Source of the DNA: Candidatus Nanopelagicales bacterium
Lineage (GTDB): Bacteria > Actinomycetota > Actinomycetes > S36-B12
Length of the DNA stretch: 45,184 nucleotides
Reading direction: 5' to 3'
NCBI GenBank assembly: GCA_032117435.1
Contig: JAULZJ010000092.1
Span: 1-45,184, forward strand
The position numbers and the translations under genes were made by a program. The notes under the pieces are model-generated. The model was not told the DNA's origin. It saw nothing but the letters and a program-made list of their open reading frames with translations, and ran no database searches. Every line of letters starts with the position of its first letter. Positions within the stretch are counted from its first letter, which is position 1. Positions 4,300 through 15,534 of the stretch are shown here, one piece after another.

Positions 4300-5120
4300 G
4301 GGCTTCCCTCTCCTGCGGATCGTCGGGGTGTTCGTGGATCTCGGTAGCCGAGGCGACGACTCACCGCCATGGCCGCGTCGACGGCAGGCCTGGCGAAGCG
4401 ACGGAGCGAGTCGCTTCCGAGACGCTGCACGGGGCCGACGATCGAGAGAGCCGCGATCACGTCACCGCGCTCATTGCGCACGGGAGCCGCGATGGAGGCT
4501 GCCCCCAACTCGGACTCGTTCACATTCTCGGCCCACCCCTGGCGTCGGATCTCCACGAGAGTGCTGCGCAAGGCCCGTGGATCGGTGATCGTGTACGGGG
4601 TCTTGCGCTCGAGTCGCCAGCCGTGCAGCAGGGCGTCCAGTTCCTCCTGTGGCAGGTAGGCCAGGAGGAGTTTGCCCGTGCTGGTGCAGTGTGCGTCGTT
4701 TCGGTGGCCGACGCGGCCAAAGAGACGCAGCGTCTGCGGGCTCTCCCGCCGCTCGACGTAGACGACCTCGCGCCCATCGAGGACGGCGACCTGGACCGTC
4801 TCCCTAGTGGCATTGCGCAGTTGGTCGATGACGGGCGAGCAGGCCTCGTGGAGGTCGTTATGGAGCGCGACCGATGCACCTAACTCGTACATCGCAAGGC
4901 CCAGGCGGTACGCTCCCGTGTCGGGATCCTGCTCAAGGAGACGCTCTTCGGCAAGCGTGCTCAGGAGCCGATGCGCGGTGCTCTTGCCGATCCCCAGGCG
5001 CCGTGACAACTCGGTGACGCCGATGTCCCGGTCGCCCCGGCCGAACTCCTTGAGTAGGCGCGCCGCATTGCGCACGCTGGACAGGGTGGAGTGCTGCCGT
5101 CGAGGCTCCGGGGCGGTCAT
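4296..5120 (-). CDS. IclR-family transcriptional regulator
   Basis: ATG at 5120 gives [26 protein letters not shown]...[23 protein letters not shown]. This is a winged HTH followed by an IclR effector domain ([21 protein letters not shown]). The ORF extension to 5525 was rejected. Confidence 0.9.
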
Positions 5121-5800
5121 GGCGCTGTCCTCAGGTGCTGCAGCAGGGCACGGCGTGCGTCCGCTGGATCGACATCGGGGCCCAGGTCGAGGCCGGGGGC
5201 GACGGCCTGGGCGAGCAGTACCTGTGAGCGAGGTAGGCCGGCGACATGCGCGCCCTGCATCTCGTCGACGAGTGACTCGCGTCCCGGTGCATGCGCACGA
5301 ATGGCGTCGAAGTCCCGCGCTGCCGCTGCATGGGAGTGCGCGAGACCGGTGCCCGCGTGCAGGGCATGGTGGGCAGTGAGGCTGCTGCCCGGGGGGACTG
5401 CCAGGTGGTAGACAACGGTGCGAATGCCGAGTGCGCGGCGTACCTCGTTGTGATTCGGGCCCCCAGACTCGTCGATGAGCCCGAGGTCGGGTGCGACGAC
5501 AGGGTCGAAGAAGCGCAGTGTCCACGCGACGTCTTGCAGGGAGTCCTGCAGCTGCACCTCCTGGCCGGAGGGTGCGGGGAGTGACTCCACCGTGCCGATC
5601 ACGTGGAGCATGCGTGCGCCGGCGGCAGCGACGGTGAGGCCCTCCGCCGATGTGAGCGGGAGTCGTGCGCGCTCCGCGGGGGGAAGGGTGAGGACGGCGT
5701 CGAGGTAGGCCTGATGCAGCGCACGGACATAGTCGGCCATGGCCTGGCGCATCGCCTCGGGTCCCTCCACGCGCGGGAACGTATCAGATACGTCCCGCAT
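5117..5800 (-). CDS. hypothetical protein, first gene of the minus-strand operon (start uncertain: 5800, 5752 or 5821)
   Basis: ORF 5117..5926 trimmed because the 5' end would overlap the divergent dioxygenase start. High GC3. The stop overlaps the iclR start in an ATGA arrangement. His-rich segment HHALHAGTGLAHSH. I recognise no family. Confidence 0.5.
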   Translation of the reverse strand: MRDVSDTFPRVEGPEAMRQAMADYVRALHQAYLDAVLTLPPAERARLPLTSAEGLTVAAAGARMLHVIGTVESLPAPSGQEVQLQDSLQDVAWTLRFFDPVVAPDLGLIDESGGPNHNEVRRALGIRTVVYHLAVPPGSSLTAHHALHAGTGLAHSHAAAARDFDAIRAHAPGRESLVDEMQGAHVAGLPRSQVLLAQAVAPGLDLGPDVDPADARRALLQHLRTAP

Positions 5801-5885: not shown

Positions 5886-6794
5886 ATGGGAATCCTGCGC
5901 TTGGCGCACGTCGACATCACGGTCACGGATCTCGATCTGGCGTCTGCGTACTACACCGAGGTCATGGGCATGCTCGAAGTCGAGCGCGACGACAACTCGG
6001 TCTACCTGAAGTGCTGGGACGAGGTGGACCATCACTCCCTGCGCATCTCCTACGCGCCGCGCGTGGGCTTCGATCTCATGTCCTTCAAGGTCCTGCGCGA
6101 GGACGATCTCGCCGACCTCGAGAATGCCGTCGGCAAATACGGCTTCCCCGTGGAGCGCATCAGCAAGGGTTCGTCCATCGGCCAGGGCGAGTCCATCCGC
6201 TTCGAAACTCCATCCGGTCAGGTCATGGAACTCGTCCACGACGTGGAGAAAATCGGCCGCGCCACGGGATCACTGAATCCCGCGCCCTTCGCCGAAGGAA
6301 TGCGCGGCATCGCGCCACCGCGGATGGATCACCTCCTCGTCACAGCGGAGGAGGTCGGGGAGTCCACTAAATTCTTCACGGACGTGCTGGGGTTCCGGGT
6401 CACGGAGCAGTTGCTGGACGGTGATGGGCATCAGGCGGCGACGTGGATGGAGCGTTCGCACTCCCCGCACGACCTCGCGATCGTCTCGGGGCCCAATGGA
6501 GGTCTCCACCACTTCGCCTACTGGCTGGACGACTGGGATCACGTGCGTCGCTCGGCTGACATCCTCGCGTACAACGGCATCCAGATCGACGTGGGTCCGA
6601 CGCGTCACGGCATCACGCGTGGCAACACCATCTACTTCTTCGACCCGCTCGGCACGCGCAACGAGGTGTTTACTGGCGGCTACCGTCCCGATCCGGATTT
6701 CCCGACCATCACGTGGACCGAGGACAACATCGGACGGGCCGTCTTCTACTACGAGGGCGAGCTCAACGAGAGATTCATGAAGGTGCACACCTGA
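5886..6794 (+). CDS. catechol 2,3-dioxygenase (type I extradiol dioxygenase), paralog 1
   Basis: ATG at 5886 follows GGGGAG. MGILRLAHVDITVTDLDLASAYYTEVMG...HHFAYW...YFFDPLGTRNE shows two-module VOC architecture with His/His/Glu metal-ligand contexts. Confidence 0.9.
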   Translation: MGILRLAHVDITVTDLDLASAYYTEVMGMLEVERDDNSVYLKCWDEVDHHSLRISYAPRVGFDLMSFKVLREDDLADLENAVGKYGFPVERISKGSSIGQGESIRFETPSGQVMELVHDVEKIGRATGSLNPAPFAEGMRGIAPPRMDHLLVTAEEVGESTKFFTDVLGFRVTEQLLDGDGHQAATWMERSHSPHDLAIVSGPNGGLHHFAYWLDDWDHVRRSADILAYNGIQIDVGPTRHGITRGNTIYFFDPLGTRNEVFTGGYRPDPDFPTITWTEDNIGRAVFYYEGELNERFMKVHT

Positions 6795-7705
6795 TGTCGA
6801 TACTGCGTCTGTCCCATGTCGAGATCAAGGTCCCCGACCTCGAGCTCGCCACCGCGTACTACACCGAGGTGGTCGGGCTCGTCGAGACCGCCCGCGAGCC
6901 TGAGCGCGTGTATCTCAAGTGCTGGGATGAGCATCAGCATCACTCGCTCGTCCTTGCCTACTCCCCGTCCTATGGCCTGGCACATATGGGCTGGAAGGTC
7001 GAGAGCCTTGAGGATCTCGACTTCTATGCTGCTCGACTCCAGGAGGCCGGTATTGCCGTCACTCGGCTGGCGGGGGCGGACGTCGGGATCGGCGGGGGCT
7101 CGGTGGTGCGCTTCGAGACACCTTCGGGCCACCAGATGGAACTCATTCACGGGATGGAGCAGGTGGGCAACCTCCTCCCGCTCACCAATCCCCCTCCTCG
7201 CCCCATGGGTCTTGTCGGTATCGCTCCTCCGCGGCTGGACCACATCTTCATCACCGTCGAGAACGTCAACGGCATGACGACCTTCCTCCAGGACGTCCTG
7301 GACTTCCACCTCACGGAGCAGGTGATGGGAGACGATGGCTTCCAGATAGCGACCTGGCTCGAGGTCTCGCACTCCTCCCACGACATCGCCCTTGTCACCG
7401 GACCCGACGGCGGACTCCATCACTTCGCCTTCTGGGTCGATGACTGGAATGACATCCGTACGGCATCCGATGTCCTCGCCTATCACGGAGTCAGGATCGA
7501 GACCAACCCCACACGCCACGGAGCCACCCGTGGGCATTGCGTCTACTTCTTCGACCCTGCGGGCAATCGCAACGAGGTATTAACCGGAGGATATTGGGCT
7601 GATCCGGACGAGCCGCCCATCACCTGGACCGAGGGTGAGATGGGCAGGGCGCTGTTCTATTACGACGGCGTCGTCAACCAGCGCTTCCTCACGGTGCACA
7701 GCTAG
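6794..7705 (+). CDS. catechol 2,3-dioxygenase (type I extradiol dioxygenase), paralog 2
   Basis: The start overlaps the paralog 1 stop (TGATG). MSILRLSHVEIKVPDLELATAYYTEVVG...HHFAFW...YFFDPAGNRNE aligns collinearly with paralog 1. Roughly half or more of positions are identical by eye. Confidence 0.9.
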   Translation: MSILRLSHVEIKVPDLELATAYYTEVVGLVETAREPERVYLKCWDEHQHHSLVLAYSPSYGLAHMGWKVESLEDLDFYAARLQEAGIAVTRLAGADVGIGGGSVVRFETPSGHQMELIHGMEQVGNLLPLTNPPPRPMGLVGIAPPRLDHIFITVENVNGMTTFLQDVLDFHLTEQVMGDDGFQIATWLEVSHSSHDIALVTGPDGGLHHFAFWVDDWNDIRTASDVLAYHGVRIETNPTRHGATRGHCVYFFDPAGNRNEVLTGGYWADPDEPPITWTEGEMGRALFYYDGVVNQRFLTVHS

Positions 7706-7712
7706 GAGTCCC

Positions 7713-8819
7713 ATGACGATGACCGAGCCCGATCTCCCGGTGACGCTCCCGCGCACCGAGCGCCCCGATGCCCCGGCGTACCTGCAGAAGTACCTCGATC
7801 GCGAGGCCCGAGGCGCCCGCCCCGGTGTCGCCGTGTCCGCCCAGGCTGGCGATGAGACCCCGCTCTACCTGCGCCGCTTCCGCGACCGTCGCACGACGGG
7901 TACGGTGCTCGATTCCCCCGTGCCCCTGTGGGAGGGAGCGGATGTGGGTGCCACGCGTGCCTGGGCCGAGGTCACGCGCACGAAGGAGATCGTGCCGGAG
8001 CGCAAGGACCAGACAAAAGCGGCCGTCACCGACGTCTACTTCGTCCGTCACGGCGAGACCCAGGGCTACTCCACGGAGTCCGGTCTCACCCCGCTGGGCT
8101 CGTGGCAGGCGCATCGACGCGGCAAGGAGCTCGCCCGCCGAATCATGTCCGGACACCACGTCACCATGGCCTGCGCCAATACCAACCGCGCGCGGCAGAC
8201 CGCCGAGGGCATCCGCAAGGGCATGCTCGACGAACTCGTGCTCTTCGGCCGCGATGCCACTGTCGGCGAGGTGGAGGCCTACGAGGAGTTTCGCAATTTC
8301 CAGGTGATGACCCCTGATGGGTTCCGCGATGTCACGCAGGCGTTTCGCGCCTACCACGCGGAGATGGAGAAGTACGAGCGCATCGGGCTGGGTGGCCGGC
8401 CCACGTGGCTGGTCGAGGTGGATCGATTCTGGGGCATCCAGCAGGCCGGCGGCGATCCCATCACCCACTGGCTGACGATGCCGATGCTCACCTTCGAGCC
8501 CCCGGTTGCGGCGGTCCGACGCTTCTGGGCCGGGCTCATGCGACTCCACGCCGAGACGCCCGGTCAATCCGTGATCGTGGCGACGCACTCCGGGCCGATT
8601 CGAGCCTTCGCCACCTGGGCGCTGGGCTACGACCCGGGTGAGCCCTTCAACACCGAGTTCGTGCGCGTGCGACTGCTGGAGGGTGGCGAGACCGCTCTGG
8701 TTCTCTACCGCAATCGCGTGCAGGAAGTGTCCGTGCCCGACTTCGACGGCTTGCCCGACTGGTGGGCCGGCCTCGAGGGACGTGCCCTCCCAGTGAGTCG
8801 ACGGGGGGAGTCGTCATGA
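7713..8819 (+). CDS. histidine phosphatase (phosphoglycerate-mutase-like) family protein with ~110-aa N-terminal extension
   Basis: AGGAG lies upstream of ATG 7713. The RHG catalytic motif (YFVRHGETQG, His codon 8049-8051) appears only at residues 112-114. A second conserved His lies in IVATHSGPIRAF. The stop overlaps the next gene's start (ATGA). Confidence 0.8.
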   Translation: MTMTEPDLPVTLPRTERPDAPAYLQKYLDREARGARPGVAVSAQAGDETPLYLRRFRDRRTTGTVLDSPVPLWEGADVGATRAWAEVTRTKEIVPERKDQTKAAVTDVYFVRHGETQGYSTESGLTPLGSWQAHRRGKELARRIMSGHHVTMACANTNRARQTAEGIRKGMLDELVLFGRDATVGEVEAYEEFRNFQVMTPDGFRDVTQAFRAYHAEMEKYERIGLGGRPTWLVEVDRFWGIQQAGGDPITHWLTMPMLTFEPPVAAVRRFWAGLMRLHAETPGQSVIVATHSGPIRAFATWALGYDPGEPFNTEFVRVRLLEGGETALVLYRNRVQEVSVPDFDGLPDWWAGLEGRALPVSRRGESS

Positions 8820-9895
8820 GTGGTTACACGATGTGGTTCGAGGGCTACTGGCCAGGACTCAAGGGCGAGGTCGGCGGCAAGGCAGCGAGTCTCGGCGAGA
8901 TGACCGGCGCCGGCCTGCCCGTGCCCCCCGGGTTCGCCGTCACGACCGCGGGCTACCGAGCCGCACACGATGCCGCAGACCTCGACGCCACCCTCGCGCG
9001 CCTACTCCACGGGCTGGATGTCTCCGACACCGCCCAGGTGAGCGCGGTTTGCGGTGAGATCCGCGATGCCATCCGCCAGATGCCGCTCCCGACAGAAGTC
9101 GAGCAGCAGATCAGGCACGACTACGACGAGTTGTCTCGGCGGTGCGATGTGGGAGATATCCCCGTTGCCGTGCGATCGTCGGCAACGTCGGAGGATTCGC
9201 CTGATGCGTCATTCGCCGGTGAGCATGACACGTACCTGTGGATCCGCGGGGGCGACGCCGTCGTCGACGCGGTAAGGCGTTGCTGGGCCAGCCTCTTCAC
9301 CGATCGCGCGACCTGCTATCGGGTGGAGATGGGCTACGAGCACCGCTCGGTCGAAATGGCCGTGGTGATCCAGAAGATGGTTCGTCCGATCGCCGCGGGC
9401 GTGGCGTTCACACTGAATCCATCCAACGGTGATCGTTCGCAGGTAGCGGTCGACGCCGCCTGGGGCTTCGGGGAGGGAGTGGTCTCGGGTGAGATCACAC
9501 CGGACAACTTCCTCGTGGACAAGGTGATGCTCGAGGTGAGCAAGCGCGAGATCAGCCATAAGGCACATGAGTACTGCCTCTCCGACCACGACACGGTGGA
9601 GAAGGTGGAGACGGATCCGGAACGGGCCGATAGCCCGTGCCTCACCGATCCCCAGCTCAAGGCAATCGCCACGCTCGCGAAGACCGCGGAGAGACACTAC
9701 GGCTGCCCCCAGGACATCGAGTGGGCGGTGGATGCCGATCTCGCTGATGGAGACAACGTCATCCTCCTTCAGGCGCGGCCCGAGACGGTGTGGAGCAAGA
9801 AGCAGCGGAAGTCCGTCGCGGGTTCCGCGGACAAGAACCCCATGGCAAGCATCGTCTCGACATTGATGAATCCGCTGTACGCGCGCAAGGACTAG
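8816..9895 (+). CDS. PEP-synthase/PPDK N-terminal ATP-grasp domain protein (phenylphosphate synthase beta-subunit-like)
   Basis: 359 aa carrying the PPDK_N signatures GGKAASLGEM, VAVRSSATSEDSPDASFAGEHDTYL, CWASLFTDRA, MAVVIQKMV, WGFGEGVVSGEITPDNF and QDIEWAV. It has no swivel-His domain and no PEP/pyruvate domain. Confidence 0.85.
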   Translation: MSGYTMWFEGYWPGLKGEVGGKAASLGEMTGAGLPVPPGFAVTTAGYRAAHDAADLDATLARLLHGLDVSDTAQVSAVCGEIRDAIRQMPLPTEVEQQIRHDYDELSRRCDVGDIPVAVRSSATSEDSPDASFAGEHDTYLWIRGGDAVVDAVRRCWASLFTDRATCYRVEMGYEHRSVEMAVVIQKMVRPIAAGVAFTLNPSNGDRSQVAVDAAWGFGEGVVSGEITPDNFLVDKVMLEVSKREISHKAHEYCLSDHDTVEKVETDPERADSPCLTDPQLKAIATLAKTAERHYGCPQDIEWAVDADLADGDNVILLQARPETVWSKKQRKSVAGSADKNPMASIVSTLMNPLYARKD

Positions 9896-9970
9896 TGAAG
9901 GATCGCACCACTAAGAGCAAGGTCACACGCTTCGTGCCCCCCGGACACGAACCCACGAGAGGAAATGCAG

Positions 9971-11782
9971 ATGGCCGATCGGTTCCCCAGCCCGTTCGAC
10001 ATCGAGACGCCTGCGGGCGCCGAGGGTTGGCAAGACATGTACGTCTACTCCTCGCTCTTCAGCGAGTCTCGCAAGGAGTTCGAGGATTCGATCTTCTGGT
10101 TCCAGGACGGAGTTCACTGGCCCAAGGTCCTCACGCCCTGGGATGCGACCTTCTACGAATTCGCGATCGCCTCGCTGTCGCAGTACAACACCCGACATCT
10201 CCAGGTGCCCCCGGCCAACGGCATCGCCTTCCGCATCCTCAACGGCTACGGCTACCTCACCCCCGTGCCCGCGGATCCCGCGACTATCGAGACCCGCGTC
10301 GAGAACTTCATGGATCGCGCCGGCTTCTACTTCATGAACTGGAACGATCTCTACGACAAGTGGATGATCAAGATCCGCGACCTGGTGAAGGAACTCGAGA
10401 GTGTGAACTTCGAGCCTCTGCCGGAGATCGAGGATGCGGACGACATCGTCAAGTCCGGCGCGGGCCTCGGATCCGGCTACCACATCCAGGAGAACTACCG
10501 CACCCTCCTCGACCTCGCACTGAAGCTGTGGAACTACCACTTCGAGTTCCTCAATCTTGGGTACGCCGCCTACCTCGACTTCTTCGGCTTCTGCAAGCAG
10601 GCCTTCCCGGGCATCCCGGACCTGGCCATCGCGAAGATGGTCGCTGGCGTCGAGGTCGACCTCTTCCGTCCCGATGAGGAGCTCAAGCGCCTTGCCCGGG
10701 TCGCGCTCGAGAGCGGTGTCGCGGAAGCGTTCGCCGTGGGCGATGTGGAGCAGACCTGCGAGATCCTCAAGGGCTCGGATGCCGGGCGTGCCTGGATCGC
10801 GTCGTTCCAGGAGTCCGCAGAGCCGTGGTTCAACTTCTCGACCGGCTCGGGCTTCTACCACTCCGACAAGATCTGGATCGAGAACGTCGAGATCCCCTTC
10901 GAGTTCATCAACGACTACATCGTCAAGCTGCAGTCCGGCGAGGATCTGGCCCGCCCGATGGCGGCGATCCACGCCGAGCGAGATCGCGTCGTGGGCGAGT
11001 ACACCGAGCTGCTGGCGACCGATGAGGATCGCGAGGCCTTCCAGGCAAAGCTGGGGCTTGCGCGCGTGGTCTTCCCCTACGTGGAGAACCACAACTTCTA
11101 TGTCGAGCACTGGAGTCACTCGGTGATCTGGCGCAAGATGCGCCAGCTGGGCGAGGTCTTCGTCAAGGAGGGCTTCTGGAGCGAGCCCAATGACATCTTC
11201 TATCTCAAGCGCACCGAGGTTGAGGATGCTCTCTGGGACTACTACGTCTCCTGGGCGACGCCGGAGCCGGCAGCTGGCCCGGGCCGCTGGCCGGCGATCA
11301 TCGACAAGCGCAAGGGCATCGTCAAGGCCCTGAGCGCCTGGAAGCCGGTGCCGGCGCTCGGAGCGCCGCCCGAGGTGATCACCGAGCCCTTCACCGTCAT
11401 GCTCTGGGGCATCACCTCGGACAGCGTCGGTGCCTGGCTCGGTGGTGGCGACGCCAAGGAGGGGGAGCTGCGCGGCATGGCGGCCTCGCCCGGCCTGGTC
11501 GAGGGGCCAGCCCGCGTGATCTTCTCCCCGGAGCAGATCGGCGAGATCCAGCAGGGCGAGATCCTCGTGGCCCCGCTGACGGCACCCTCGTGGGCGCCGA
11601 TCTTCGGCAAGATCCTGGCGACGGTCACGGACACCGGCGGCATGATGAGCCACGCCGCCATCGTCTGCCGCGAGTACGGCCTGCCGGCCGTCACCGGCAC
11701 GGGCTTCGCCACCACCAACATCCAGACGGGCCAGCGCATCCGCGTCGACGGCAACAATGGAGTCGTCACCGTCATCGAGTAG
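9971..11782 (+). CDS. PEP-utilising-enzyme mobile (phospho-His) domain protein with large N-terminal domain (phenylphosphate synthase alpha-subunit-like)
   Basis: The last ~105 aa (GMAASPGLVEGPARVI...TDTGGMMSHAAIVCREYGLPAVTG) are a swivel domain with its catalytic His codon at 11651-11653. The ~500-aa N-terminal region is not recognisable as a PEP/pyruvate TIM barrel. ATG 9971 has better AGAGGA spacing than ATG 9965. Confidence 0.8.
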   Translation: MADRFPSPFDIETPAGAEGWQDMYVYSSLFSESRKEFEDSIFWFQDGVHWPKVLTPWDATFYEFAIASLSQYNTRHLQVPPANGIAFRILNGYGYLTPVPADPATIETRVENFMDRAGFYFMNWNDLYDKWMIKIRDLVKELESVNFEPLPEIEDADDIVKSGAGLGSGYHIQENYRTLLDLALKLWNYHFEFLNLGYAAYLDFFGFCKQAFPGIPDLAIAKMVAGVEVDLFRPDEELKRLARVALESGVAEAFAVGDVEQTCEILKGSDAGRAWIASFQESAEPWFNFSTGSGFYHSDKIWIENVEIPFEFINDYIVKLQSGEDLARPMAAIHAERDRVVGEYTELLATDEDREAFQAKLGLARVVFPYVENHNFYVEHWSHSVIWRKMRQLGEVFVKEGFWSEPNDIFYLKRTEVEDALWDYYVSWATPEPAAGPGRWPAIIDKRKGIVKALSAWKPVPALGAPPEVITEPFTVMLWGITSDSVGAWLGGGDAKEGELRGMAASPGLVEGPARVIFSPEQIGEIQQGEILVAPLTAPSWAPIFGKILATVTDTGGMMSHAAIVCREYGLPAVTGTGFATTNIQTGQRIRVDGNNGVVTVIE

Positions 11783-11943: not shown

Positions 11944-13203
11944 ATGCTGACCGTGGAGCAGAACGAAGAACTCACTCGTGTTGGCCCCGGCACCCCGATG
12001 GGGGAGTTGCTGCGCCGCTACTGGTACCCCATTGCCTTCGAGCAGGATTTCGACACGGTTCCGACGAAGACCGTGCGCCTGCTCAGCGAGAACTGGACGC
12101 TCTACAAGACGCCCAAGGGCGGCAAGTACGGGATCGTCGCCGAGGCGTGCCCCCATCGCAGTGCTTCCCTGACCTACGGCGTCGTGCACGAGGACGGGAT
12201 TCGCTGCGGCTACCACGGTTGGAAGTGGGACTTCGAGGGCAATTGCGTCGAGCAGCCGGCGGAGGCGGACAACCAGAACTTCCGTGATCGTGTCAAGCAG
12301 AAGGCGGGCAAGGCCGAGGTCATGGGCGGCATGATCTGGGTCTACGTCGGGCCCGACCCAGCGCCGGAGCTCCCGCGATTCGATGTCTTCGTCATGGACG
12401 GGGTCAAGGACTGCGGCTACGCCACCCTTCCGTGCAACTGGCTTCAGATCATGGAGAACTCCGTCGATCCCCACCACGTGGAGTGGTTGCACGGCTACTA
12501 CTTCAACTTCATGGGGGAGACTCAGGGCTTCGATGCCCCGAAGGCCTTCCAGAAGAAGCACCTCAAGACCGGCTTCGAGGAGATGGAATGGGGCATTCTC
12601 AAGCGGCGTGTGCTCGAGGGTGGTTCGGAGGAGAATGACGACTGGAAGGTCGGCCATCCACTGGTCTTCCCCTACTTCATGCGCGTGGGTGGCGCGGGTA
12701 TCGACCAGATGCAGATCCGCGTGCCCGTCGACGACCGCACGACGTGGAAGCTCTTCTACTCCAATCACGCTCCCGACGCTGGCGCGTGGGAGGCGCAGGA
12801 CCGGCCCGTCGTCTACGAGTACTTCTGGCGTGACGACGAGGGTCGCTTCATCACCGACTACATCGAGGGTCAGGACATCATGGCCTGGGTGAGCCAGGGG
12901 CCGGTCACCGACCGCACGCAGGAGCATCTCGGCCGCTCGGATGCCGGTGTGGCAATGCTGCGCAAGATGTTCAAGGAGAACATGAAGCGGGTCGCCAACG
13001 GCGAGGATCCACTCGGCACCATCCGTGAGAAGCACGACATGATCCCGCTGCCCTGTGAGCGCGACAAGTTCGGCGCCGAGCGCGAGTTCGCCGAAGCCTT
13101 CATCACGATGGGCTCCATGCGCTATAGCCCGCAGAGGCAGCAGCTACTCGACCTGCATGCTGATGCCTGGGCTCGACGCGAGAAGGCCGCCGCGGGTGCG
13201 TGA
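11944..13203 (+). CDS. Rieske non-heme-iron oxygenase, alpha-subunit-only type (phthalate/PaO-like family)
   Basis: 419 aa. The Rieske motif is CPHRSASL...CGYHGWKW (Cys codon 12148-12150). The mononuclear iron motif is NWLQIMENSVDPHHVEWLHG. GGAAGGA precedes the ATG. No beta-subunit gene follows. Confidence 0.9.
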   Translation: MLTVEQNEELTRVGPGTPMGELLRRYWYPIAFEQDFDTVPTKTVRLLSENWTLYKTPKGGKYGIVAEACPHRSASLTYGVVHEDGIRCGYHGWKWDFEGNCVEQPAEADNQNFRDRVKQKAGKAEVMGGMIWVYVGPDPAPELPRFDVFVMDGVKDCGYATLPCNWLQIMENSVDPHHVEWLHGYYFNFMGETQGFDAPKAFQKKHLKTGFEEMEWGILKRRVLEGGSEENDDWKVGHPLVFPYFMRVGGAGIDQMQIRVPVDDRTTWKLFYSNHAPDAGAWEAQDRPVVYEYFWRDDEGRFITDYIEGQDIMAWVSQGPVTDRTQEHLGRSDAGVAMLRKMFKENMKRVANGEDPLGTIREKHDMIPLPCERDKFGAEREFAEAFITMGSMRYSPQRQQLLDLHADAWARREKAAAGA

Positions 13204-13276: not shown

Positions 13277-13531
13277 TTGAGCGACCTCCCGCCTGACCCC
13301 CACCGGCTCCCGCCTCCGGGGGCGTGGTTCGCCGGTGATGCAGAGCGGCACCTGCTCGACAAGCCGAAGTTCTGCCCCATGTGCGCTGCCAGCATCGAGG
13401 TGCACGGTGGCATCTCCACGGAGTACTGGGTGTCTGACCAGCGGGTCTTCATGACCTGGTGTGGTGAGTGCGGGTGGTTCGGCGATGTCGTGCGCTACGA
13501 CATGGTGACTATCACCGAGGAGGAGCACTGA
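13277..13531 (+). CDS. small 4-Cys zinc-ribbon/rubredoxin-like protein (start uncertain: TTG 13277 or GTG 13196)
   Basis: This is the C-terminal part of ORF 13055..13531: LSDLPPDPHRL...KFCPMCAASIEVHGG...MTWCGECGWFGDVV...EEEH. GC3 is high from about 13277 onward and lower upstream. GAGGA lies 5 nt before the TTG. Confidence 0.5.
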   Translation: MSDLPPDPHRLPPPGAWFAGDAERHLLDKPKFCPMCAASIEVHGGISTEYWVSDQRVFMTWCGECGWFGDVVRYDMVTITEEEH

Positions 13532-14169
13532 CCGCTCTCGTCTTCGACTTCGGCGGTCCTGTCCTGCTCACCCCCTTCGAGTTGCGCTCCGTGGGCGAGA
13601 GGTCGCTGGGCCTGGAGCCGGGCACCTTCGCGTGGACCGGGCCCTTCGGCCCTGACTCCGATCGCGACTGGGTCGACTTCCAAGCCGGCGCCATGAACGA
13701 GCGAGATTACTGGGCTCGTCGGTGCCAGGAGTTCCACGCTCTCAGTGGCGAGCCCGCGCAGATGCCCGCCTTCATGGCGCACCTGTACTCGGGCACCGAG
13801 GAGGAGTTGGTACGTCCTGCCGCACGTGAGCTCATTGCGGATGCCAAGGCCGCGGGCATCCCAGTCGGGATGCTCACCAATGACCTCACGGCGTTCCATG
13901 ATCAGTCATGGCTCGACCGGATGACGATCCTGCGCGAGTTCGACCAGATGGTGGACGGGCGCACGGACGGTGTACTCAAGCCCGACCCCCGCGCGTACCT
14001 GCTGATGGCTGAGCGGCTGGGTGTCGACGCCACCGAGTGCGTCTTCATCGATGACCAGCCGGGCAATATCGCGGGTGCGCAGGCGGTCGGTATGCGTACC
14101 GTGCACCTGGACCCGGTGGATCCCGAGCCGGGCTTCGTGCAGGCCCGGCACATGCTCGGTCTCACCTGA
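13468..14169 (+). CDS. HAD-superfamily phosphatase/hydrolase (subfamily IA-like)
   Basis: Motif I is VFDFGGPVL, followed by MLTNDL and then KPDPRAYLLMAERLGVDATECVFIDDQPGNI. The ORF-track start is GTG 13468. A CTG at 13528 preceded by GAGGAGGAG would give a typical short N-terminus. Confidence 0.8.
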   Translation: MRVVRRCRALRHGDYHRGGALTALVFDFGGPVLLTPFELRSVGERSLGLEPGTFAWTGPFGPDSDRDWVDFQAGAMNERDYWARRCQEFHALSGEPAQMPAFMAHLYSGTEEELVRPAARELIADAKAAGIPVGMLTNDLTAFHDQSWLDRMTILREFDQMVDGRTDGVLKPDPRAYLLMAERLGVDATECVFIDDQPGNIAGAQAVGMRTVHLDPVDPEPGFVQARHMLGLT

Positions 14170-14178
14170 GGAGGAGAG

Positions 14179-15534
14179 ATGACCCGTCCCTTGCGCGTGG
14201 CCGTCATCGGGTCAGGCCCGTCCGGGATGTACGCCGCCGACGCGTTGCTCGCCCAGGAAGACATCCCGGTGTCCGTGGACATCATCGACAAGCTGCCGAC
14301 CCCCTTCGGCCTGGTGCGCTACGGCGTGGCCCCGGACCACCTGAGCATCCGCTCGGTGCGGGACACGCTCGACAAGGTGCTCGACCAACCCGGCGTGAGG
14401 TTCCTGGGGAATGTCGAGGTGGGCGTCGACATCAGCCTGCCTCAGCTTCGCCAGTTCTACGATGCGATCGTCCTGACGTACGGCGCCTCGCGTGATCGAC
14501 TGCTCGGGATCCCTGGAGAGCAGCTGGCCGGCAGTATCGCCGCGACGGACTTCGTCAATTGGTACACGGGACATCCCGACATGGACCCCGAGGCGTTCGT
14601 CGACTTCCTGACATCATCATCGCGCGTGGCCGTGATCGGCGTGGGGAATGTCGCGGTCGACGTCACGCGTGTGCTGTCCAAATCCCCGTCGGAGATCGAG
14701 CACACGGACATGCCGGACCACGTATTCACTGCCCTGCGGGCTTCAGGCGTGCGTGATGTGCATCTCATCGGTCGGCGTGGGCCTGCTCAGGCCACGTGGA
14801 CGACGAAGGAGTTGCGCGAGTTGGGTGATCTCGAGGCCACGCAGGTGCTGATCGCCGAGGGCGCCTCGGTCGACGACCCGGCCAGTCAGCGAGCGATCGC
14901 GGGAGACAAAGCGGTGGCGCGCAATGTCACCGTGGTCGAGGGTTGGAGTGAGCGCATCGAGGATGGTCGTGAGCGACGTATCCACCTGCATTTCCGCTGC
15001 CGTCCAGTCGAGATCCTGGGTGCCGAGCGCGTCGAGGGGCTCGTCGTCGAGGTCACCGAGGTCGACGAGGCCGGACAGGCGACCGGGACGGGAGATACCC
15101 ACGTCATCCCCGTCGATGCCGTGATCCGCAGCGTGGGCTATCGCGGCACCTCAATAGCGGGCGTGCCCTTCGACGACCGTCGCAATGTCATCCCCAACGA
15201 CCAGGGTCGTGTGATGGACGGCGAGGAGCGCGTGCCCGGCTTGTACGTCGCCGGTTGGATCAAGCGCGGCCCCACGGGGATCATCGGCACCAACAAGAAG
15301 GACGCGGTGCAGACCGTCGCCTGCCTGATCGAGGATCTCGCAGACCCTGCGACATGGACAGCGACGCGTCCGGATCCCGCGGATGTGGACGCTGCCCTGA
15401 GCGGCCAGCGTGTGGTGGACATCGAGGGGTGGCGACGCATCGATGCCGCGGAGCGTGCCCTGGGCGCCTCATGCGGCCGAGAGCGCACAACCCTGCATGA
15501 ACGTCCGGCCATGCTGGCGGCTGCCGCCGACTAG
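14179..15534 (+). CDS. NADPH-ferredoxin reductase, FprA/adrenodoxin-reductase type
   Basis: 451 aa. It has VAVIGSGPSGMYAA (FAD GxGxxG), VAVIGVGNVAVDVTR (NADP) and GWIKRGPTGIIGTNKKDA. GAGGAGGAGAG precedes the ATG. Confidence 0.9.
   Translation: MTRPLRVAVIGSGPSGMYAADALLAQEDIPVSVDIIDKLPTPFGLVRYGVAPDHLSIRSVRDTLDKVLDQPGVRFLGNVEVGVDISLPQLRQFYDAIVLTYGASRDRLLGIPGEQLAGSIAATDFVNWYTGHPDMDPEAFVDFLTSSSRVAVIGVGNVAVDVTRVLSKSPSEIEHTDMPDHVFTALRASGVRDVHLIGRRGPAQATWTTKELRELGDLEATQVLIAEGASVDDPASQRAIAGDKAVARNVTVVEGWSERIEDGRERRIHLHFRCRPVEILGAERVEGLVVEVTEVDEAGQATGTGDTHVIPVDAVIRSVGYRGTSIAGVPFDDRRNVIPNDQGRVMDGEERVPGLYVAGWIKRGPTGIIGTNKKDAVQTVACLIEDLADPATWTATRPDPADVDAALSGQRVVDIEGWRRIDAAERALGASCGRERTTLHERPAMLAAAAD

Follow-up and report, generated by a model that had tools for sequence, protein, structure and literature searches.

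An N-terminally extended histidine phosphatase encoded behind catechol 2,3-dioxygenase: a candidate aryl-phosphate phosphohydrolase of a dikinase-initiated phenol pathway

The DNA analysed here, a stretch of 45,184 nucleotides from a Candidatus Nanopelagicales bacterium (contig JAULZJ010000092.1; hereafter the window), encodes on its forward strand, at 7713-8819, a histidine phosphatase with a long N-terminal extension, P0001. We propose that P0001 is a dedicated aryl-phosphate phosphohydrolase of a phosphorylation-initiated, aerobic phenol-to-catechol pathway, in which it supplies catechol 2,3-dioxygenase (C23O), and we give this reading a probability of about one half. The fixed position of the gene behind C23O, the natural fusions of the two enzymes and the looser link to the kinase fit a pathway phosphohydrolase better than a kinase accessory. 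P0001 would therefore play the part that HpeD and CreD have in their pathways, having been recruited to it from another fold.

The gene neighbourhood was compared at 25 distinct loci with the extended phosphatase. At every one of them the gene directly before that of the phosphatase encodes C23O, while the downstream genes vary. The gene found immediately downstream at 21 loci encodes the ATP-grasp subunit of a two-component phenol dikinase, which bears out the functional link to such a system put forward in the first-pass annotation of this DNA; at the other four the next gene encodes a Rieske oxygenase, a DsbA-like protein (once fused to the phosphatase) or a HAD hydrolase. The Rieske gene was found at every fetched locus that reached far enough. 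Encoded with both a dikinase and an oxygenase that would transform its ester product, P0001 has the company that we took to define its functional class. At loci L003 and L062, the C23O gene runs into the phosphatase gene, with 1-4 nt shared. Additionally, in two proteins, P0149 and P0274 (78% identical), C23O and the phosphatase core are joined in clean in-frame fusions without the extension. In a quick tree these fusions branch next to the extended clade and not from within it, and the idea that the extension was lost upon fusion to C23O was rejected on this ground. A C23O::phosphatase fusion gene at L061:331-4248 is followed by genes for a GcvT-type aminomethyltransferase and a methylenetetrahydrofolate reductase (MTHFR), a pairing typical of tetrahydrofolate-dependent aromatic O-demethylation. 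Apparent phosphatase-kinase fusions (P0172, P0147, P0190, P0219, P0245 and P0244) were discarded as frameshifted, low-quality gene calls, and open frames of ~740 amino acids, considered as fusions, as GC-rich read-through of overlapping frames.

The neighbourhood data bear directly on the alternative that the phosphatase is directed at the kinase, either acting on the phospho- or pyrophospho-histidine of its swivel domain or docking on the ATP-grasp subunit, and in this way resets, regulates or stimulates the dikinase. The phosphatase stop and the ATP-grasp start share a 4-nt ATGA overlap, described in the first-pass annotation and confirmed in the sequence, that also occurs in several Actinomycetota loci (it recurs at L001, L003, L070 and L072); two-component dikinases co-occur with both the extended branch of the family and a branch of short relatives; and the superfamily includes phosphohistidine phosphatases such as SixA. 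Nevertheless, we consider a role directed at the kinase improbable. The match of P0001 to the SixA-type model TIGR00249 is weak, at 11.4 bits against a cut-off of 74.5. The kinase gene is not adjacent at four of the 25 loci, and in the Myxococcota genome G401 no kinase is encoded within 10 kb, the orthologous pair (49% and 58% identity) lying on another contig. At L064 the kinase large subunit, which belongs to a different subfamily, is only 28% identical to that of the window, whereas the Rieske oxygenase, C23O and the phosphatase are conserved (55%, 58% and 44% identity, respectively). The natural fusions join the phosphatase to C23O and not to a kinase subunit. The large kinase subunit begins with M-A-D-R-F-P-S-P-F-D-I-E-T-P-x-G and phosphatases of a second subfamily start with D-R-F-P-[ST]-x-R-D-x-A-P-A-Y-L, but mimicry of the kinase N-terminus was rejected as chance: when an HMM of the phosphatase N-terminus was run against all 522 open frames of the window, the kinase N-terminus was not among the top non-self matches (<=5.8 bits). 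Moreover, the two purified components of the HpeHI dikinase suffice for full activity in vitro, and phosphate transfer is achieved by HpeH on its own (PMC12167813). HpeHI works without a third protein, and therefore there is no empty third-subunit slot to be filled here; a substitute for PpsC, which had been the first guess, is a possible role but not the best-supported one. The same holds for a regulator of the phospho-histidine carrier, given the invariant C23O neighbour, the fusions to C23O and the kinase encoded elsewhere in Myxococcota.

Judged by its fold and invariant residues, the core of P0001 is predicted to be a catalytically intact histidine phosphatase, in agreement with the family assignment made at first. 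The Pfam family His_Phos_1 (PF00300) matches P0001 in two stretches with 56.9 bits (cut-off 21.7), and position 1 of its HMM falls on residue 108. Sequence and Pfam also agree on the RHG motif where it had been placed, at residues 112-114. The structure model mentioned below was made with AlphaFold2 (AF2), and its confidence is given as the predicted local distance difference test (pLDDT); A1, A2 and A3 are alignments.

7713-8819, forward strand: histidine phosphatase P0001, N-terminally extended, 368 amino acids (open reading frame, Pfam, homologue search)
8022-8747, forward strand: histidine phosphatase core, residues 104-345 (Pfam; AF2 pLDDT 88-98; Foldseek)
8046-8054, forward strand: RHG motif, residues 112-114, with the putative nucleophile His113 (CAC, 8049-8051), invariant in A1, A2 and A3
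8187-8189, forward strand: Arg159 (in R-A-x-Q-T-A), second phosphate-binding arginine, invariant
8223-8468, forward strand: family-specific cap insertion, about residues 171-252, with FRNFQV, DVTxAF, YER and GDRPxWLVExDRFW (gap in the Pfam match, alignment, model)
8496-8498, forward strand: Glu262 (in FEPP), acidic residue and putative proton donor, invariant in A2 and A3
8586-8588, forward strand: His292 (in THSGPIR), second catalytic histidine, invariant

Arg112, His113, Arg159, Glu262 and His292 are invariant in 135 extended and 24 short relatives. Foldseek searches returned PspA, PhoE, RosC, Rv2419c and the phosphoglycerate mutase-type protein PGAM5, at 14-20% identity, E-values of ~1e-10 to 1e-7 and a probability of 1.00. 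A profile search of the Protein Data Bank (PDB) with the P0001 sequence gave no relative, and the TAL effector matches of a single-sequence PDB search were rejected as summed chance matches to a repeat. The profiles of the dPGM/GpmB mutases and of the CobC alpha-ribazole phosphatases reach 12.5-22 bits against cut-offs of 163-261, and none of the HAD families of Pfam and NCBIfam matches P0001. Between the two Pfam-matching stretches lies the highly conserved insertion of ~80 residues, at the position where the superfamily carries a substrate-selecting cap. The homologue search with P0001 gave 1205 matches at E<=0.001, and the best 120 of them, all from Actinomycetota, align over 90-100% of the query with 62-90% identity. 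Compared with the closest homologue for which DNA was fetched, the ratio of nonsynonymous to synonymous change (dN/dS) of the core is 0.03. By these features, P0001 appears to be active and to have a specialised substrate.

The genes around the phosphatase provide the other activities that the proposed pathway would need.

5886-6794, forward strand: catechol 2,3-dioxygenase, paralogue 1 (TIGR03211, 382 bits, cut-off 320)
6794-7705, forward strand: catechol 2,3-dioxygenase, paralogue 2, directly 5' of the phosphatase gene (TIGR03211, 357 bits, cut-off 320)
8816-9895, forward strand: dikinase ATP-grasp subunit, PPDK_N, PpsB/CreI/HpeI-like, 359 amino acids (Pfam, NCBIfam)
9965-11782, forward strand: dikinase large subunit with a C-terminal swivel-histidine (PEP-utilizers) domain, PpsA/CreH/HpeH-like, PRK08296, 605 amino acids (Pfam, NCBIfam)
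11944-13203, forward strand: Rieske oxygenase alpha subunit, Rieske and LigXa_C domains (Pfam, PDB search)
13531-14169, forward strand: HAD-IA hydrolase, second phosphatase candidate, with an uncertain start codon (Pfam, NCBIfam)
14179-15534, forward strand: FprA/GltD-like NAD(P)H flavoprotein reductase (Pfam, NCBIfam)

In the first step the two-subunit dikinase (8816-11782) would phosphorylate the phenolic hydroxyl with ATP, as its homology to PpsAB, CreHI and HpeHI suggests. The Rieske oxygenase (11944-13203) would then oxygenate the anionic aryl phosphate beside the ester. In the third step, His113 would accept the phosphate, aided by Arg112, Arg159 and His292, while Glu262 probably acts as the acid; the phospho-enzyme would be hydrolysed and catechol released, an aryl phosphate being the presumed substrate. 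Finally, ring cleavage would fall to the upstream dioxygenases, and the products of the divergent lower meta-pathway operon would complete the degradation. Both dioxygenases pass the equivalog cut-off of TIGR03211, which points to catechol as the ring-cleavage substrate. Among solved structures, the Rieske oxygenase is closest to 7fjl, entered as a Rieske (2Fe-2S) domain protein, and to 7fhr, entered as a putative phthalate 4,5-dioxygenase alpha subunit (E ~2e-44). Phthalate dioxygenases bind a dianionic aromatic substrate, and an aryl phosphate would fit. The HAD hydrolase is of the epoxide-hydrolase N-terminal phosphatase type, and its gene is separate from that of P0001. What we say of function beyond fold, conserved residues and gene context is inferred.

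A small protein is encoded on the same strand between the Rieske oxygenase and the HAD hydrolase. The divergent strand encodes an uncharacterised protein, an IclR regulator and the lower meta-cleavage enzymes. The protein of ~227 amino acids encoded at 5117-5800 on the reverse strand, just upstream of the IclR regulator, matches no Pfam or NCBIfam family; its position is kept in Actinomycetota loci (49-63% identity), and it is absent at the Myxococcota locus. No CBS domain was matched in P0001 or in the thirteen cluster proteins scanned with Pfam, so that the absence of a CBS-type third dikinase subunit, remarked upon in the first-pass annotation, holds.

The part of P0001 that precedes the core raises two questions, namely whether it is made and what it may do. 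The phosphatase ATG follows the stop codon of the upstream dioxygenase gene by 7 nt and is preceded by a Shine-Dalgarno (SD) sequence. It had been stated that no in-frame canonical start with an SD sequence lies near the RHG motif; such a start does exist, as a GTG at codon 94 behind AAGGAG, the bases of this region doubling as code for the conserved K-E-I-V of motif 3. The residues upstream of codon 94 are conserved, which shows that the long form is made.

7704-7708, forward strand: Shine-Dalgarno sequence AGGAG, 4 nt 5' of the ATG at 7713 (read from the sequence)
7713-8021, forward strand: N-terminal extension, residues 1-103, without a family match (dN/dS 0.13; AF2 pLDDT 46-79)
7746-7805, forward strand: motif 1, residues 12-31 (LPRTERPDAPAYLQKYLDRE) (alignment)
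7857-7892, forward strand: motif 2, residues 49-60 (TPLYLRRFRDRR), second copy of P-x-Y-L-x-R-[YF]-x-x-R (alignment, motif-1 HMM)
7929-8003, forward strand: motif 3, residues 73-97 (WEG...TRAWAEVTRTKEIVPER) (alignment)
7983-7994, forward strand: AAGGAG (7983-7988) followed by the in-frame GTG of codon 94 (7992-7994), a possible secondary start (read from the sequence)
8816-8819, forward strand: ATGA overlap of the phosphatase stop TGA (8817-8819) with the ATP-grasp ATG (8816-8818) (read from the sequence)

The alignment of 135 sequences was drawn from several subfamilies and several phyla. At least 90% of these sequences keep R17, A20, P21, A22, Y23, L24, Y27 and R30 in motif 1, P50 in motif 2, and A85, T88, E92 and P95 in motif 3. 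When an HMM of motif 1 was run against the open frames of the window, motif 2 was the best non-self match (7.8 bits; the next <=5.8). In comparison with the closest homologue with fetched DNA, the proportions of nonsynonymous and synonymous differences in the extension (pN and pS) are 0.126 and 0.571, corresponding to a dN/dS of 0.13. Motif 2 is identical in amino-acid sequence to that of two homologues; substitutions accumulate faster in the linkers. The extension is thus translated, and purifying selection acts on it.

Residues 1-107 match no Pfam or NCBIfam family, as the first-pass annotation had supposed in leaving the extension unassigned. The HMM search and structure prediction that it proposed returned no family and three short helices: the helices (residues 22-32, 51-61 and 82-88) appear in both AF2 runs, each of which models the core with confidence, and the pLDDT of the extension is 36-65 with 32 sequences and 46-79 with 135. 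When residues 1-103 were the sole query, all matches belonged to this phosphatase family (of the best 120 listed, only two short proteins lack PF00300); a mobile domain was accordingly rejected. The motifs, the helices and the family-restricted matches together indicate that the extension is an arm peculiar to this family, in which short conserved helices alternate with variable linkers, and not a separate globular domain. Of the earlier term 'novel domain', the novelty stands and the domain does not. The extension also sets apart those family members whose genes are tied to catechol dioxygenase.

Most likely, the extension is a flexible docking or regulatory arm, either a tether to a partner, with C23O as the first candidate, or a gate of the enzyme's own active site. 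A more specific version, which we offer tentatively and hold to be rather unlikely, is that it tethers the phosphatase to C23O and that catechol, which is toxic and oxidises by itself, stays masked as a phosphate ester until handover, combining a protecting group with channelling in aerobic aromatic catabolism; the few fusion lineages would achieve the same covalently. In a bolder variant, phospho-His113 would recycle its phosphate to the next phenol molecule. It is somewhat less probable that the extension serves as an oligomerisation or activation arm of the PGAM5 type in a self-assembling phosphatase, an option that is compatible with a phosphohydrolase feeding C23O. PGAM5, a structural match of the core (5muf), is enzymatically active as a dodecamer whose assembly depends on an N-terminal motif, and the gain in pLDDT with the deeper alignment hints at defined contacts of the arm. 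However, the motif in PGAM5, Trp/Asp-rich (WDxNWD), does not occur in the P0001 sequence, the model is a monomer, and the extension is confined to the C23O-linked branch.

Several points weigh against a phosphohydrolase that feeds C23O. Its substrate, and that of the pathway, are inferred from gene context alone. The loci share ancestry, and 25 C23O neighbours at 25 loci therefore overstate independence. The HAD hydrolase is conserved in the same system across phyla (in the window and at L001, L003, L005, L062, L064 and L072) and has the fold of HpeD, so that either enzyme may be the main phosphohydrolase. A product phosphatase might even be unneeded, since a dioxygenase-type attack of the Rieske enzyme at the ester-bearing carbon could expel the phosphate spontaneously. 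The ATGA coupling to the ATP-grasp subunit in Actinomycetota also fits a role directed at the kinase. Lastly, because the C23O fusions branch beside the extended clade, they do not establish that the extension stands in for a fusion.

The conservation of two phosphatase-type genes in the system also suits a different division of labour, in which P0001 acts as a proofreading enzyme or safety valve, hydrolysing un-oxygenated aryl phosphate or wrongly phosphorylated phenols and averting a dead-end build-up, and the HAD hydrolase is the product phosphatase, as befits the fold that it shares with HpeD, a phosphatase with a proven pathway role (PMC9618137). We regard this role, which was among the first guesses, as unlikely and not the best-supported. 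Of the two enzymes, the histidine phosphatase varies less in its occurrence and holds a fixed position, whereas at L063 and in the clusters of the short relatives a HAD gene was not detected; strict adjacency and fusion to C23O suit a productive step better than salvage; and the core is strongly conserved, as the dN/dS and the identities among the best 120 Actinomycetota homologues given above attest. Less probable still is a phosphoryl-recycling transferase, in which phospho-His113 would move phosphate from catechol phosphate to fresh phenol and the ATP-to-AMP kinase would only prime the cycle, even though the fold uses a covalent phospho-histidine, some of its members are mutases and the HAD-type hydrolase of the cluster could carry out plain hydrolysis. 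HpeH alone shows phosphotransfer between aryl phosphates and phenols (PMC12167813), but for P0001 the dPGM-type mutase models score far below their cut-offs, and sequence features do not separate a transferase from a hydrolase. A pathway phosphohydrolase for C23O is the reading that we retain.

The arrangement of the window recurs in full in Actinomycetota metagenome-assembled genomes (MAGs) labelled Nanopelagicales and Nocardioides, and homologous proteins are also labelled Micromonosporaceae, Pseudonocardiales and Streptosporangiaceae. Of 401 genomes sampled in the phylum, 17 have this arrangement, and 11 of these belong to one family. The cluster as such is spread over Actinomycetota (including freshwater Nanopelagicales), Myxococcota, Marinimicrobia and other phyla. 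At L019, from the Actinomycetota genome G006, the Rieske gene and not the kinase directly follows the phosphatase, and the gene order is therefore not fixed even within Actinomycetota. Outside this phylum, the phosphatase is followed at L062:10001-12263 by a DsbA-like protein and a glutathione S-transferase (GST), and at L063:10001-11674 it is fused to a DsbA-like protein (P0316, 557 amino acids). The DsbA-like neighbours and fusion suggest a variant downstream chemistry, possibly with an isomerase step. In a MAG labelled Nocardioides (L005:11218-14214), both kinase genes are split across frames and the Rieske gene is truncated, perhaps through faulty assembly or because this copy of the cluster is decaying.

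The short relatives, proteins of 240-275 amino acids with 30-45% identity to the core, lack the extension and adjoin C23O at none of 12 Actinomycetota loci. At seven of eight extended loci they lie within 10 kb, at ~5 kb, of another two-component dikinase. The cluster at L053:342-11009 (genome G011, Actinomycetota family f20), annotated with Pfam in detail, begins with a PEP-utilizers subunit and a PPDK_N subunit and continues with a three-subunit molybdenum hydroxylase (FAD, MoCo and 2Fe-2S), a fumarylacetoacetate (FAA) hydrolase, a cyclase, the short phosphatase and a TetR regulator; the short relative is its sole phosphatase. Similar clusters are present at L054, L055, L058 and L060. As both the extended and the short branch are encoded near dikinases, the whole family seems to partner dikinase-initiated catabolic clusters.

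To our knowledge, few phosphorylation-initiated routes of phenol degradation have been described, namely Pps, Cre, Hpe/Acv and MarK, and our full-text search of the literature found no paper on the extended phosphatase or its cluster. What is new here is the finding that the gene's context centres on the dioxygenase, that natural fusions to it exist, that the gene and its cluster reach beyond Actinomycetota and that short relatives occur in molybdenum-hydroxylase clusters, together with the analysis of selection on the extension. The phosphatase marks a widespread cluster that joins a dikinase, a Rieske oxygenase and catechol meta-cleavage. If catechol is unmasked beside the dioxygenase, the phosphate would serve as a removable protecting and retention group, and this would give a reason for the ATP cost. 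If the assignment is true, it would ease the annotation of dikinase-initiated pathways in metagenomes and the engineering of pathways for lignin-derived phenols. With it, the pathway phosphatases would comprise three unrelated folds: HpeD is a NagD-like HAD protein and CreD is an HD-type hydrolase and not a histidine phosphatase.

Among proteins of known structure, P0001 shares its fold and the R-H-G, R and H set with the branch-1 broad-specificity phosphatases PhoE/YhfR (1h2e), PspA (4ij5), Rv2419c (4pz9) and RosC (9emu). In contrast to P0001, these carry the RHG motif within about their first ten residues; at an identity of 14-20%, P0001 adds to them the cap insertion of ~80 residues and the 103-residue extension. 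PpsC of the Thauera phenylphosphate synthase resembles P0001 as a third protein encoded beside a two-subunit phenol dikinase. However, it is a CBS-domain stimulatory protein of another fold, and the context of P0001 ties it to the dioxygenase and not to the kinase. The 3-hydroxypyridine cluster of Ensifer adhaerens HP1 combines a two-component dikinase with a molybdenum hydroxylase, as do the clusters of the short relatives (bioRxiv 10.1101/2020.01.08.898148). The short relatives have no N-terminal extension and do not lie beside C23O, and a term search of the text of that paper gave no mention of a phosphatase; in this dikinase-dependent system the phosphorylated intermediate was not detected (bioRxiv 10.1101/2020.01.08.898148).

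The closest functional parallels are the pathways in which the phenol is phosphorylated, transformed as an ester and dephosphorylated by a cluster-encoded phosphatase. In the catabolism of hydroxyphenylethanones, HpeHI phosphorylates, HpeCBA transforms and HpeD dephosphorylates (PMC9618137), and in 4-cresol catabolism CreHI, CreJEF and CreD have the corresponding roles (PMC12167813, PMC7764795). HpeD and AcvF, from the hydroxyphenylethanone and acetovanillone pathways of Rhodococcus rhodochrous GD02 and Sphingobium SYK-6, thus occupy the place after the dikinase and the ester transformation that we propose for P0001 (PMC9618137, PMC12167813). HpeD, however, is of an unrelated fold and has no N-terminal arm; the middle step of its pathway is a biotin-dependent carboxylase reaction instead of a Rieske oxygenation, and the products lead to vanillate or 4-hydroxybenzoate and not to the meta-cleavage of catechol. 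In Corynebacterium glutamicum, 4-cresol is phosphorylated, oxidised while phosphorylated and then dephosphorylated by CreD (PMC12167813, PMC7764795), the same order of steps as proposed here, although the P450 system CreJEF oxidises the methyl group and the pathway has no link to an extradiol dioxygenase.

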